IMG/VR virus record: IMGVR_UViG_2609460219_000002
DNA from: a virus
Taxonomy: Duplodnaviria > Heunggongvirae > Uroviricota > Caudoviricetes
DNA: 6,615 nt
Strand: one strand, 5' to 3'
The notes below the pieces were generated by a model. It had not been told where the DNA came from. It was given only the letters and a program-made list of their open reading frames with translations, and ran no database searches. The position numbers were made by a program, and so were the translations under genes. This document shows, in pieces, positions 32 to 6,615 of this stretch (positions are counted from its first letter, which is position 1; each line of letters opens with the position of its first letter).

Positions 32-92
32 TCGCTTTGTAACGGAGTAGACGAAAGTGATCGCGCTACCCGGATATTATCGTGAGGATGCG

Positions 93-1857: not shown

Positions 1858-1932
1858 AGCTGAACTCCTGAAAATGGCTGTGAAAATATCGCCCGCGAAA
1901 TGCCAGGCTGATTAGGAAAACAGGAAAGGGGG

Positions 1933-2076
1933 TTAGTGAATGCTTTTGCTTGATCTCAGTTTCAGTATTAATATCCATTTTTTATAAGCGTCGACGGCTT
2001 CACGAAACATCTTTTCATCGCCAATAAAAGTGGCGATAGTGAATTTAGTCTGGATAGCCATAAGTGTTTGATCCAT
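1933..2076 (-). CDS. kil: Kil host-killing / cell-division inhibitor, 47 aa
   Basis: Internal Met of the 89-aa track ORF gives [47 protein letters not shown], matching lambda Kil. Overlaps the 3' end of cIII as in lambda. Confidence 0.85.
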
Positions 2077-2209
2077 TCTTTGGGACTCCTGGCTGATTAA
2101 GTATGTCGATAAGGCGTTTCCATCCGTCACGTAATTTACGGGTGATTCGTTCAAGTAAAGATTCGGAAGGGCAGCCAGCAACAGGCCACCCTGCAATGGC
2201 ATATTGCAT
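2045..2209 (-). CDS. cIII: cIII, inhibitor of FtsH-mediated cII degradation, 54 aa
   Basis: Internal Met of the 78-aa track ORF gives [54 protein letters not shown], matching lambda cIII. An AAGGAG ribosome-binding site precedes the ATG. Confidence 0.9.
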   Translation of the reverse strand: MQYAIAGWPVAGCPSESLLERITRKLRDGWKRLIDILNQPGVPKNGSNTYGYPD

Positions 2210-2281
2210 GGTGTGCTCCTTATTTATACATAACGAAAAACGCCTCGAGTGAAGCGTTATTGGTATGCGGTAAAGCCGCAC

Positions 2282-2650
2282 TCAGGCGGCCTTGATAGTC
2301 ATATCATCTGAATCAAATATTCCTGATGTATCGATATCGGTAATTCTTATTCCTTCGCTACCATCCATTGGAGGCCATCCTTCCTGACCATTTCCATCAT
2401 TCCAGTCGAACTCACACACAACACCATATGCATTTAAGTCGCTTGAAATTGCTATAAGCAGAGCATGTTGCGCCAGCATGATTAATACAGCATTTAATGC
2501 AGAGCCGTGTTTATTGAGTCGGTATTCAGAGTCTGACCAGAAATTATTAATCTGGTGAAGTTTTTCCTCTGTCATTAAGTCATGGTCGATTTCAATTTCT
2601 ATTGATGCTTTCCAGTCGTAATCAATGATGTATTTTTTGATGTTTGACAT
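2282..2650 (-). CDS. ea10: Ea10 early-region protein, 122 aa
   Basis: Translation MSNIKKYIIDYDWKASIEIEIDHD...DDMTIKAA matches lambda Ea10 with a few substitutions. Confidence 0.85.
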   Translation of the reverse strand: MSNIKKYIIDYDWKASIEIEIDHDLMTEEKLHQINNFWSDSEYRLNKHGSALNAVLIMLAQHALLIAISSDLNAYGVVCEFDWNDGNGQEGWPPMDGSEGIRITDIDTSGIFDSDDMTIKAA

Positions 2651-2666
2651 CTGTTCATATCCTCAC

Positions 2667-2695
2667 AGAAAAAATCGCCCTCACATTAGAGGGCA
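2667..2695 (-). terminator. Putative intrinsic terminator between the ral remnant and ea10 (tL2-like position)
   Basis: Minus-strand RNA would form GCCCUC-UAAUGU-GAGGGC (6-bp GC-rich stem) immediately followed by GAUUUUUUCUG. Sits about 17 nt upstream of the ea10 start. Inferred from sequence only. Confidence 0.45.
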
Positions 2696-2830
2696 AAGAA
2701 GATTTCCAATAATCAGAACAAGTCGGCTCCTGTTTAGTTACGAGCGACATTGCTCCGTGTATTCACTCGTTGGAATGAATGCAGAGTGCAGTATTTATTC
2801 TGTTGTTTATGCCAAAAATAAAGGCCACCA

Positions 2831-2928
2831 TCAGGCAGCCTTGTTATTCTGTTTACCAAGTTATCTGGCAATCATTGCCGTCGTTCGTATTGCCCACACC
2901 ATTGATTCTTATCAGTAGTCGTAGTCAT
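2831..2928 (-). pseudogene. ral: ral (restriction alleviation) remnant, internally deleted and prematurely terminated
   Basis: From ATG at 2928..2926 the frame reads MTTTTDKNQWCGQYERRQ-stop. The first 13 residues match the lambda Ral N-terminus. Ral C-terminal residues (AIRTTAMIAR, then a stop, then LGKQNNKAA-stop) are encoded directly downstream in a different frame. This implies an internal deletion that is not a multiple of 3, plus a nonsense change. Confidence 0.6.
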
Positions 2929-2981
2929 ATGGATAGTCCTGGTATTGTTCCATCACATCCTGAGGATGCTCTTCGAACTCT

Positions 2982-3335
2982 TCAAATTCTTCTTCCATAT
3001 ACCCCCCCCCAAATAAGTGGTTTGCTGCCTAATTTCATTTTCTGGCGACCAACACAAGTCACACCCATTTCACTGCGTGGCTTGCTGTACCATGTGCGCT
3101 GATTCTTGCGCTCAATACGTTGCAGGTTGCTTTCAATCTGTTCGTGGTATTCAGCCAGCACCGTAAGGTCTATCGGATTCAGTGCGCTTTCTACTCGTGA
3201 TTTCGGTTTGCGATTCAGCGAGAGAATAGGGCGGTTAACTGGTTTTGCGCTTACCCCAACCAACAGGGGATTTGCTGCTTTCCATTGAGCCTGTTTCTCT
3301 GCGCGACGTTCGCGGCGGCGTGTTTGTGCATCCAT
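2982..3335 (-). CDS. N: N transcription antiterminator, 117 aa, with divergent and extended C-terminus
   Basis: Internal Met of the 135-aa track ORF gives MDAQTRRRERRAEKQAQWKAANPLLVGVSAKPVNRPILSLNRKPKSRVESALNPIDLTVLAEYH..., the lambda N arginine-rich motif and N-terminal two-thirds. AGGAGA ribosome-binding site precedes the ATG. The C-terminus (…GSKPLIWGGVYGRRI) differs from lambda N and is read through a G9 tract. Confidence 0.9.
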   Translation of the reverse strand: MDAQTRRRERRAEKQAQWKAANPLLVGVSAKPVNRPILSLNRKPKSRVESALNPIDLTVLAEYHEQIESNLQRIERKNQRTWYSKPRSEMGVTCVGRQKMKLGSKPLIWGGVYGRRI

Positions 3336-3445
3336 CTGGATTCTCCTGTCAGTTAGCTTTGAGTAACGCGCCGTGATGCTTATCTCCACGGTTGCTGTCT
3401 AGCAGCTGCATTTCGCGCTACTCAAAGCTTTCTGCTTTGAATGCT

Positions 3446-3477
3446 GCCCTTCTTCAGGGCTTAAATTTTTAAGAGCC
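3446..3477 (-). promoter_or_regulatory. nutL: nutL (boxA-like plus boxB) N-utilisation site
   Basis: Minus strand reads GGCTCTTAAAAATTTAAGCCCTGAAGAAGGGC. boxB GCCCTGAAGAAGGGC is a perfect hairpin identical to lambda nutL boxB; the upstream boxA-like element is a CGCTCTTA variant. Lies between pL and N. Confidence 0.75.
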
Positions 3478-3521
3478 TCACCTTCATGGTGGTCAGTGCG
3501 TCCTGCTGATGGTTTAAAATT

Positions 3522-3589
3522 ACAAGAAAGATTGTATGTTGTAAACAAGAAATATTGTAAAAAGAGGTGTACAAAACAAACTCCATTGT
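3522..3589 (-). promoter_or_regulatory. Left operator OL (three 434-type 14-bp sites) overlapping the pL promoter
   Basis: Three ACAA-N6-TTGT 14-mers: ACAAGAAAGATTGT (3522-3535), ACAAGAAATATTGT (3545-3558), ACAAACTCCATTGT (3576-3589). These fit the 434 operator pattern ACAAGAAAGTTTGT. Candidate pL hexamers on the minus strand are TTTACA (3545..3540) and TAATTT (3522..3517); the hexamer assignment is tentative. Confidence 0.7.
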
Positions 3590-3639
3590 TTTTAAACGGA
3601 AAATAGTTTGTTTTTTGGTTATTGAGATTGAGGTGGGGA

Positions 3640-4992
<1,353 letters not shown>

Positions 4993-5000
4993 GAAATTCC

Positions 5001-5032
5001 CGCTCTTACACATCCCCGCCCTGAAAAAGGGC
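5001..5032 (+). promoter_or_regulatory. nutR: nutR (boxA CGCTCTTA plus boxB hairpin)
   Basis: boxA CGCTCTTA at 5001-5008. boxB GCCCTGAAAAAGGGC at 5018-5032 is a perfect 5-bp stem with A-rich loop. Located just after cro, as in lambda. Confidence 0.8.
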
Positions 5033-5045
5033 ATCCAATTAAACC

Positions 5046-5090
5046 ACACCTATGGTGTATGCATTTATTTGCATACATTCAATTAATTGT
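5046..5090 (+). terminator. tR1 region (Rho-dependent in lambda) with small hairpins
   Basis: Position between nutR and cII matches lambda tR1. Hairpins ACACC-TAT-GGTGT and GTATGCA-TTTATT-TGCATAC are followed by AT-rich sequence. Assigned by position and lambda similarity only. Confidence 0.35.
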
Positions 5091-5111
5091 TATCTAAGGA
5101 AATACTTACAT

Positions 5112-5405
5112 ATGTTTCGTGCAAACAAACGCAACGAGGCTCTACGAATCGAGAGTGCGTTGCTTAACAAAATCGCAATGCTTGGAACTGAGAAGACAGC
5201 GGAAGCTGTGGGAGTTGATAAGTCGCAGATCAGCAGGTGGAAGAGAGACTGGATTCCAAAGTTCTCAATGCTGCTTGCTGTTCTTGAATGGGGTGTCGTT
5301 GACGACGACATGGCTCGATTGGCGCGACAAGTTGCTGCGATTCTCACCAATAAAAAACGCCCGGCGGCAACCGAGCGTTCTGAACAAATCCAGATGGAGT
5401 TCTGA
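5112..5405 (+). CDS. cII: cII transcriptional activator (lysogeny establishment), 97 aa
   Basis: From ATG at 5112: MFRANKRNEALRIESALLNKIAMLGTEKTAEAVGVDKSQISRWKRDWIPKFSMLLAVLEWGVVDDDMARLARQVAAILTNKKRPAATERSEQIQMEF, matching lambda cII apart from V2F. The track ORF start at 5052 was rejected. Confidence 0.95.
   Translation: MFRANKRNEALRIESALLNKIAMLGTEKTAEAVGVDKSQISRWKRDWIPKFSMLLAVLEWGVVDDDMARLARQVAAILTNKKRPAATERSEQIQMEF
5121..5134 (-). promoter_or_regulatory. pRE cII-binding site (TTGC-N6-TTGC direct repeat)
   Basis: Minus strand reads TTGCGTTTGTTTGC across the first cII codons, the cII recognition repeat flanking the pRE -35 region in lambda. Confidence 0.6.
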
Positions 5406-5427
5406 GGTCATTACTGGATAAATCCAC
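5351..5427 (-). ncRNA. oop: oop antisense RNA (about 77 nt) overlapping the cII 3' end, with terminator t-oop
   Basis: Minus strand across the cII 3' end and cII-O spacer closely resembles lambda oop and ends in a GC-rich hairpin (CGCUCGG...CCGGGCG) followed by a U-tract (UUUUUUA). Exact ends are approximate. Confidence 0.5.
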
Positions 5428-5437
5428 AGGAGTCATT

Positions 5438-6338
5438 ATGACAAATACAGCAAAAATACTCAACTTCTGCAGAGGTAACTTTGCCAAACAGGAGCGTAAT
5501 GTGGCAGATCTCGATGATGGTTACGTCAGACTATCAAATATGCTGCTTGAGGCTTATTCAGGCGCAGATCTGACCAAGCGACAGTTTAAAGTGCTGCTTG
5601 CCATTCTGCGTAAAACCTATGGGTGGAATAAACCAATGGACAGAATCACCGATTCTCAACTTAGCGAGATTACAAAGTTACCCGTCAAACGGTGCAATGA
5701 AGCCAAGTTAGAACTCGTCAGAATGAATATTATCAAGCAACAATGCGGCATGTTTGGACCAAATAAAAACATCTCAGAATGGTGCATCCCTCAAAACGAG
5801 GGAAAATCCCCTAAAACGAGGGATAAAACATCCCTCAAATTGGGGGATTGCTATCCCTCAAAACAAGGGGGACACAAAAGACACTAATACAAAAGAAAAA
5901 AGAAAAGATTATTCGTCAGAGAATTCTGGCGAATCCTCTGACCAGCCAGAAAACGATCTTTCTGTGGTGAAACCGGATGCTGCAATTCAGAGCGGCAGCA
6001 AGTGGGGGACAGCAGAAGACCTGACCGCCGCAGAGTGGATGTTTGACATGGTGAAGACCATCGCGCCATCAGCCAGAAAACCGAATTTTGCAGGGTGGGC
6101 TAACGATATCCGCCTGATGCGTGAACGTGACGGACGTAACCACCGCGACATGTGCGTGCTGTTCCGCTGGGCATGCCAGGACAACTTCTGGTCCGGTAAC
6201 GTGCTTAGCCCGGCCAAACTCCGCGACAAGTGGACCCAGCTCGAAATCAACCGTAACAAGCAACAGGCAGTCGTGACAGCCAGCAAACCAAAACTCGACC
6301 TGACAAACACAGACTGGATTTACGGGGTGGATCTATGA
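5438..6338 (+). pseudogene. O: Replication initiator O, disrupted as sequenced by a +1 frameshift inside ori iteron 4
   Basis: N-terminal frame (5438-5887, MTNTAKILNF...YPSKQG then GHKRH-stop) and C-terminal frame (...DTKDTNTKEKRKDYSSENSGESSDQPENDL...DWIYGVDL, ending 6338) both match lambda O but differ by +1. Total span is 901 nt rather than a multiple of 3. The shift maps to CAAAACAAGGGGGAC (about 5864-5870). Confidence 0.75.
5786..5920. repeat. ori-lambda: four O-binding iterons plus adjacent AT-rich unwinding region
   Basis: Four inverted-repeat iterons: ATCCCTCAAAACGAGGGA (5786-5803), ATCCCCTAAAACGAGGGA (5806-5823), ATCCCTCAAATTGGGGGA (5830-5847), ATCCCTCAAAACAAGGGGGA (5853-5872). They are followed by AT-rich ACAAAAGACACTAATACAAAAGAAAAAAGAAAAGATTATT. 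Confidence 0.85.
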
Positions 6339-6615
6339 AAAACATCGCCGCACAGGTGGTTAACTTTGACCGTGAGCAGATGCGTCGGATCGCCAACAAC
6401 ATGCCGGAACAGTACGACGAAAAGCCGCAGGTACAGCAGGTAGCGCAGATCATCAACGGTGTGTTCAGCCAGTTACTGGCAACTTTCCCGGCGAGTCTGG
6501 CTAACCGTGACCAGAACGAACTGAACGAAATCCGCCGCCAGTGGGTTCTGGCTTTCCGGGAAAACGGGATCACCACAATGGAACAGGTTAACGCAGGAAT
6601 GCGCGTAGCCCGTCG
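6335..6615 (+). CDS. P: Replication protein P (DnaB helicase loader), N-terminal part; continues beyond the window
   Basis: ATG at 6335 overlaps the O stop (ATGA). Translation MKNIAAQVVNFDREQMRRIANNMPEQYDEKPQVQQVAQIINGVFSQLLATFPASLANRDQNELNEIRRQWVLAFRENGITTMEQVNAGMRVAR matches the lambda P N-terminus. Not in the ORF track because no stop falls inside the window. Confidence 0.9.
   Translation, partial: MKNIAAQVVNFDREQMRRIANNMPEQYDEKPQVQQVAQIINGVFSQLLATFPASLANRDQNELNEIRRQWVLAFRENGITTMEQVNAGMRVAR

Follow-up and report, generated by a model that had tools for sequence, protein, structure and literature searches.

A natural poly-G allele at the end of gene N in imm434-type Escherichia coli prophages, and its probable lengthening by one base in a draft contig

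The nine-base homopolymer at the 3' end of the antitermination gene N in the prophage DNA studied here is most likely a minor natural allele with a sequencing error on top of it, not a demonstrated genetic switch. We consider it likely that a genuine mutation of the N/orf28 junction, confined to one prophage lineage, accounts for the run, and that a one-base sequencing error was added to it in this contig. The allele itself is an undescribed variant of a very well-known gene.

The N/orf28 junction in the window and in its relatives

The window, by which we mean the whole 6,615-base stretch that was analysed, holds the lambdoid prophage genes exo, bet, gam, kil, cIII, ea10, a ral remnant, orf28, N, nutL, a 434-type cI/cro immunity region, cII, O and P. 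Within it, N is placed in the pL operon, with the immunity region on one side and orf28/ral on the other. The features on which the argument turns are the following.

3012..3335, minus strand: antitermination protein N, canonical core of 108 aa, MDAQ...KPLI (PF11438, alignment)
2982..3011, minus strand: extra N tail as assembled, WGGVYGRRI and stop (translation)
3002..3010, minus strand: poly-G tract, G9 as assembled (sequence and comparison with relatives)
2912..2998, minus strand: orf28, MEEEFEEFEEHPQDVMEQYQDYPYDYDY, 28 codons, a conserved acidic mini-ORF between N and ral
2872..2928, minus strand: ral remnant, 18 codons (internal deletion of ~100 bp relative to HK544 and lambda ral)
2821..2842, minus strand: terminator-like hairpin followed by a T-run, just past the ral stop
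2282-2650, minus strand: Ea10 protein gene
3446..3460, minus strand: presumed nutL boxB hairpin GCCCTGAAGAAGGGC, with a boxA-like GCTCTTA upstream (hairpin scan)

Judged by its sequence, the gene is a lambda-family N by all testable criteria except its C-terminal end. The core has a precomputed Pfam match to PF11438, its 108 residues are collinear with lambda-type N, and residues 1-85 equal those of lambda N but for a single residue when aligned to chain N of PDB 6GOV, the lambda-N transcription antitermination complex, which contains full-length N. The N-terminal arginine-rich motif that binds boxB is present and identical to that of lambda N. The position in the pL operon agrees as well, as does the upstream hairpin at 3446-3460, which, going by lambda nutL, we take to be boxB, the RNA site bound by N. 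In lambda N, RNA polymerase is bound by the C-terminal third, and the protein is largely disordered on its own. In lambda-type N this region ends at about residue 107-110; in the window lineage, by contrast, the core is present but is followed by 9-32 residues after PLI, for want of a stop codon at that point. A literature search on the N C-terminus returned nothing specific.

As assembled, N runs on the minus strand from an ATG at 3335 to 2982 and has the C-terminus ...GSKPLIWGGVYGRRI*. Its 3' end reads AAA CCA CTT ATT TGG GGG GGG GTA TAT GGA AGA AGA ATT TGA, which is translated to ...KPLIWGGVYGRRI and, in the alignment to 6GOV, extends 9 residues past the lambda-type PLI end. The initial annotation had reported nine C/G at 3002-3010 and a tail of this kind beyond PLI, and both the sequence and its translation bear this out: positions 3002-3010 are CCCCCCCCC on the plus strand (C9), in the context ta-CCCCCCCCC-aaataagtgg, hence G9 on the N strand. 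No other homopolymer longer than six occurs in the window, and a C9/G9 run arose in 3 of 200 dinucleotide-preserving shuffles. A scan for promoters and terminators around the tract found no element at the tract itself; it returned the nutL boxB hairpin and hairpins 3' of ral only.

What does the run replace? In HK544, in the SY3626 and USMARC-49610 prophages and in the nearest IMG/VR loci, the junction is CCACTTATT-TGA-GGTGA-TATATGG (...CCA CTT ATT TGA GGTGA TAT ATG), so that TGA ends N directly after PLI. The 7-nt GAGGTGA forms the junction in hundreds of lambdoid relatives, where it also serves as the Shine-Dalgarno sequence of orf28, whose stop in turn overlaps the ral start. The G run takes the place of precisely this conserved element, N stop codon and orf28 Shine-Dalgarno together, and thus forms a simple-sequence tract (G7-G9) lying inside a reading frame, in the last N codons and the orf28 ribosome-binding site. 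HK544/Sf101-type junctions otherwise have the N allele, the orf28 and the gene order of the window, sieB being absent from between N and ral; the window differs in its G run and in the internal deletion of ral, the latter also seen in SY3626 and USMARC-49610.

Surveys of the canonical junction gave a uniform picture. A gapped pattern search of IMG/VR and GTDB, together with earlier-fetched loci, yielded a 10-nt GAGGTGA[G/T]AT-type spacer in 125 of 125 loci and a G run in none of them. When a 69-nt query spanning the tract was compared with 5,426 complete E. coli genomes, 448 records matched it over nearly its full length, as did 40 of 50,697 phage records. Every full-length match has GAGGTGA, and the top matches are all 92.8% identical, which corresponds to exactly five tract differences from the window. 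An explicit G-run pattern had no match in IMG/VR and JGI metagenomes, and neither the spacer census nor a look-up of the WGD-tail protein returned an intermediate between GAGGTGA and G7. The initial annotation had allowed that the tract might prove interrupted, with a stop right after PLI; this is the arrangement in most relatives, but not in the closest ones, which carry pure G7 or G8.

Modelling of the run length indicates how the tract shapes the protein. With G7, the tail after PLI is WGGIWKKNLKSSKSILRM (+18 aa, N of 126 aa), read out of frame through the orf28 start. With G8 it is WGGY followed by Orf28, an in-frame fusion (+32 aa, N of 140 aa) that terminates at the orf28 stop at 2912-2914, just within the start of the ral remnant. 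The WGGVYGRRI tail (+9 aa, N of 117 aa) requires a run of 9 (or 6, 12 and so on) and overlaps the orf28 start out of frame, and G10 would give a 19-aa tail in the third frame, similar to G7. A change of length hence alters the C-terminal tail in every frame, as had been proposed, and no modelled length truncates N or restores the stop after PLI. The accompanying expectation that one G fewer would cause a much longer read-through towards ral is right as to the longer product of 140 aa and wrong as to its target, which is orf28; ral is a deleted remnant.

In principle, a run of G7-G9 might also be recoded, by ribosomal frameshifting or by slippage of RNA polymerase, and yield mixed N isoforms. 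The one point in favour is that a homopolymeric G run would permit perfect re-pairing of tRNA-Gly in any frame. The known sites of efficient slippage in E. coli, however, are A/T runs or X XXY YYZ motifs made of A/U-rich codons, and canonical N would be regained in no frame, and we regard recoding as very improbable.

A lineage of prophages with G7 and G8 tracts

A sequencing or assembly artefact comprising the entire tract, with canonical GAGGTGA and a stop after PLI as the true sequence, was the explanation favoured at first, given that the tract was unique among the relatives first sampled and that the assembly is based on Ion Torrent data. It was dropped once exact look-up of the window Ea10 protein, which led to NCBI draft and ENA metagenome contigs, gave a G7/G8 lineage. 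Over 5.6 kb, these Ea10-anchored contigs match the window at ~99% identity, and all have a pure poly-G at the junction. Further look-ups with the G7 and G8 N proteins brought the total to 26 loci of imm434-type E. coli prophages (18 with G7 and 8 with G8), taken from NCBI drafts, ENA metagenomes and Logan assemblies of separate runs. Since 26 independently assembled loci agree in the position of a pure G7 or G8 run and in the lineage-specific SNPs around it, a wholly artefactual tract is now barely conceivable.

The abundance of each form was estimated by exact protein look-ups in a collection of 15 billion proteins. The canonical 108-aa N is found on at least 1000 contigs. The G7 form is found on 20, with 5 more that have an upstream start call and 9 in an S29T background, and the G8 form on 10-13. 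The G9 form is encoded by one contig, the window itself, and by no other among 153 billion gene positions; the look-up yielded no run-level assembly with the G9 protein. Proteins corresponding to G4, G5, G6, G10, G11, G12 or the WGD intermediate are absent from the 15-billion-protein collection. NCBI and UniRef records annotate the G7 protein as 'antitermination protein N'. The G8 protein is called in Logan and ENA contigs, while the NCBI assemblies L131 and L137 list no product for it and may have flagged it as frameshifted.

To relate run length to ancestry, 2.7 kb of flanking sequence were aligned with the tract removed. This resolves eight G7 haplotypes and one G8 haplotype, and run length is constant within each, lengths here being those of the assembly consensus, which reports the majority length and hides heterogeneity within a culture. 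The G8 haplotype is 1 SNP away from two of the G7 haplotypes and occurs across many independent samples, on different exo-bet arms. With the tract removed, the window and the G8 haplotype show 0 differences over 2.7 kb. Run length is thus inherited with the haplotype, a pattern unlike that of a fast phase-variable tract. Because length co-segregates with haplotype, one slippage event suffices to explain all lengths outside the window. The proposal that the tract can slip is accordingly supported by at least one natural event, documented by the G7 and G8 alleles of related prophages; the further proposal of phase variation is not, since length is fixed per haplotype and other samples yielded no forms but G7 and G8.

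One locus separates the tract from lambda-type N altogether. In L132 (JAAMJF010000017.1, 2061-2740), the G7-orf28-ral remnant-ea10 module comes after another N-type gene (127 aa, PF25694) and a 45-codon ORF, and of lambda-type N only ~20 nt of the 3' end are kept. The poly-G is intergenic there, immediately upstream of orf28, and a TTG lies in frame with orf28 (MGGYMEEEF...). That the G7 module occurs behind a different N implies that the tract is real and moves together with the orf28 module.

Might the run nevertheless be a selected contingency locus, in which slippage between G7, G8 and G9 supplies three N isoforms (+18, the Orf28 fusion and +9)? Such a locus, which we consider improbable, would tune antitermination, prophage inducibility or expression of orf28. 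The resemblance to the poly-G/C contingency loci of Neisseria, Haemophilus and Campylobacter is evident: a poly-G of 7-9 in a coding region sets the reading frame, and its length differs between near-identical prophages. The recurrence of the G7 module behind the different N of L132 indicates that the module spreads by recombination. In addition, the three changes to G within 7 nt stand against none private to the 324-nt N core and ~2.6% divergence downstream. Three clustered substitutions, all to G and far above local divergence, suggest more than drift and could reflect selection for the run rather than mutational drift.

Against a contingency locus stand the perfect co-segregation of length with the flanking haplotype and the presence of only two lengths outside the error-prone window contig. 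Recurrent, reversible and haplotype-independent changes of length were not found; a single change accounts for the data. No frame provides an OFF state or the canonical stop, and ral next to it has already been reduced to a remnant by deletion, in keeping with decay of a non-essential region. Moreover, the E. coli host is mismatch-repair proficient, and G7-G8 lies at the low end for high-frequency switching. If the contingency reading were true, it would mean a switch within the master early regulator of lambdoid phages, operating in a mismatch-repair-proficient host, with isoforms that differ in antitermination strength and set lytic entry of imm434-type prophages. The data are better described by a tract that is mutable on an evolutionary timescale, with one length change seen, and that is passed on as a stable allele rather than working as a fast on/off switch.

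The ninth G

Exact look-up of the 117-aa N identified the window as the whole of contig JNOG01000115.1 (GCA_000740625.1) from E. coli CS03. This commensal isolate was sequenced on Ion Torrent with reads of ~140 nt and assembled with MIRA 4.0, with 45% of the reads entering the assembly, and the draft has 4,829 annotated genes against 4,228 coding sequences (PMC4256178). Ion Torrent is unreliable at homopolymers of this length (Quail et al. 2012); PMC4687164 concerns PacBio undercalls and is hence no source for Ion Torrent error. The exact count of nine is untrustworthy because it comes from an Ion Torrent/MIRA draft contig.

The closest G8 loci allow a direct comparison. Window positions 2285-6615 against L142 and 1902-6032 against L143 show 0 mismatches over 4.1-4.3 kb (4.7 kb for the two comparisons combined), and the differences consist of an additional C in the tract and an additional A at 5865 (CAAAAC-A-AGGGGG), with no others. 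A third indel lies at the left end of the contig. Two of the three fall in conserved genes.

5865..5865, plus strand: extra A (A to AA), which frameshifts the replication gene O (comparison with relatives)
66..67, plus strand: missing C (CC to C), by which the DUF1317 (orf60a-like) gene at the contig's left end loses its frame (comparison with L131 and L137)

Deleting A5865 gives an O protein of 299 aa that agrees with a reference in 293 of 299 residues; every relative, the otherwise identical G8 loci included, has an O of 299 aa and lacks the extra A. Likewise, adding a C at 67 gives a DUF1317 protein identical to the reference in 32 of 32 residues. All three indels are thus changes of ±1 in homopolymers, and the two outside the tract break conserved genes without downstream decay. 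On this comparison, the A5865 insertion is probably an Ion Torrent error, and a run of eight is far more liable to such error than the runs of one and two bases also miscalled here. The spectrum of private SNPs of the window relative to the first panel of relatives was mixed.

Taken together, the contig shows the features of Ion Torrent/454 homopolymer miscalls: a flow-chemistry platform, a ±1 difference in a long run on a contig otherwise identical to independently sequenced relatives, and further frame-breaking one-nucleotide homopolymer indels on the same contig. The likeness extends to the ninth G alone; the run itself is real. We regard the ninth G as a probable overcall because the window otherwise equals the G8 haplotype, because it carries other one-nucleotide homopolymer indels and because of the platform. 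Comparative sequence evidence therefore makes it probable that the true CS03 tract is G8 and its product an N-Orf28 fusion; the annotation KFH74794.1 probably describes a phantom protein. The initial annotation had also named the tract as prone to sequencing error, and such error is the probable source of the ninth G.

Alternatively, G9 may be true in CS03, as the outcome of a second +1 slippage (G8>G9) that left N with the WGGVYGRRI tail. The tract has slipped once in nature already (G7 versus G8), longer homopolymer runs slip more often, a G8>G9 slip is just the behaviour to be expected of such a tract, and an assembly consensus is usually built on many reads. Yet the G9 protein is confined to this contig, two other ±1 homopolymer indels break conserved genes within it, and runs of this length are documented to be called unreliably on the platform. 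We therefore judge a true G9 unlikely, although clearly less so than a contingency locus.

The left part of the contig has a history of its own. Positions 1-1860 (the exo-bet-gam arm) differ by 23-44 SNPs from the other G8 loci, and positions 1902-6615 are identical. Either recombination in the red region produced this divergence, or MIRA merged two lambdoid prophages of CS03 into one consensus; in view of the divergence, the contig cannot be taken as a plain copy of any sampled G8 prophage.

Origin of the allele and its neighbourhood

How might the G run have arisen? G7 has the length of GAGGTGA and differs from it by three substitutions (A>G, T>G and A>G), and G8 is G7 plus one. We envision that, in a small imm434-type lineage, GAGGTGA was converted to G7 by these substitutions with no change of length: a short G run may have formed, and misalignment ('dislocation') errors at the ends of the run would then have absorbed the neighbouring bases. 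The conversion removed the N stop, so that N is read 18 codons further, to 126 aa. On this view, a later, single +1 slippage produced G8 in one haplotype and joined N in frame to Orf28 in a protein of 140 aa. The window contig belongs to this G8 haplotype, its ninth G being most probably an Ion Torrent homopolymer overcall, and the real CS03 prophage would encode the N-Orf28 fusion rather than the WGGVYGRRI tail. Conceivably, the G run still acts as a G-rich ribosome-binding site for orf28.

As assembled, G9 and WGGVYGRRI serve mainly as a warning about homopolymer lengths in Ion Torrent drafts. The underlying real feature is a natural stop-less N allele, encoding N+18 or N-Orf28, which occurs in dozens of sources, both E. 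coli isolates and gut metagenomes. Since the C-terminal part of lambda N binds RNA polymerase, such alleles are useful as natural tests of how much extra polypeptide is tolerated at the C-terminus and of whether these prophages are N-proficient. The point is a modest one, for lambda specialists, and opens no long-standing question.

Other natural N alleles end within ±2 residues of PLI (...PLI, ...PLYEG, ...PAYYD, ...PLA). Alternative C-termini seen among natural N proteins are ...PLYEG (P0008), ...SIPAYYD (P0013), ...SIPLA (P0009/P0015) and ...QKNEIRQQTTYLR (P0022). The last of these is frameshifted, resembles a one-nucleotide change in the A-run of CAGAAAATGAAA, and stops at the second TGA within GAGGTGA. 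Given several alternative natural C-termini, the extreme C-terminus of N seems either to tolerate change or to be often mis-sequenced.

Downstream of the tract, the lineage-specific substitutions in orf28 are synonymous. From ral (window 2872-2928 and 2815-2871), ~100 bp are missing between two CAAT(T/A)C(A/G)AACGA-like direct repeat copies, and in the window the retained 3' part also carries a GAA>TAA change. The same deletion is found in E. coli SY3626 and USMARC-49610 and in two IMG/VR loci (L011 and L015), all with canonical GAGGTGA. In lambda itself (J02459; locus L004, 455-480, minus strand), the sequence ...AATCCACTATTTAAGGTGATATATGG lies just upstream of orf28 and downstream of sieB, and looks like a relic of the 3' end of an HK544-type N gene. 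This relic suggests that sieB and the lambda-type N 3' end were inserted there, which would make the N/orf28 boundary a mosaic joint.

Upstream of N, the nutL spacer between boxA and boxB (window 3465, AAAAATTTAAG) has one base more than in lambda imm434 and NZ_CP148578.1; the extra base is common to the G8 loci and is therefore a real feature of the lineage, not an error. The complete E. coli genome NZ_CP148578.1 (L128) also offers a second case in which a Shine-Dalgarno-like GGAGG has become poly-G in a similar prophage: at 5612-5619, which corresponds to window ~4693-4698, it reads GATTGGGGGGGGTAAAT (G8), where the window has GATTGGAGGTAAAT, a GGAGG-like motif upstream of the 434-type cI start.
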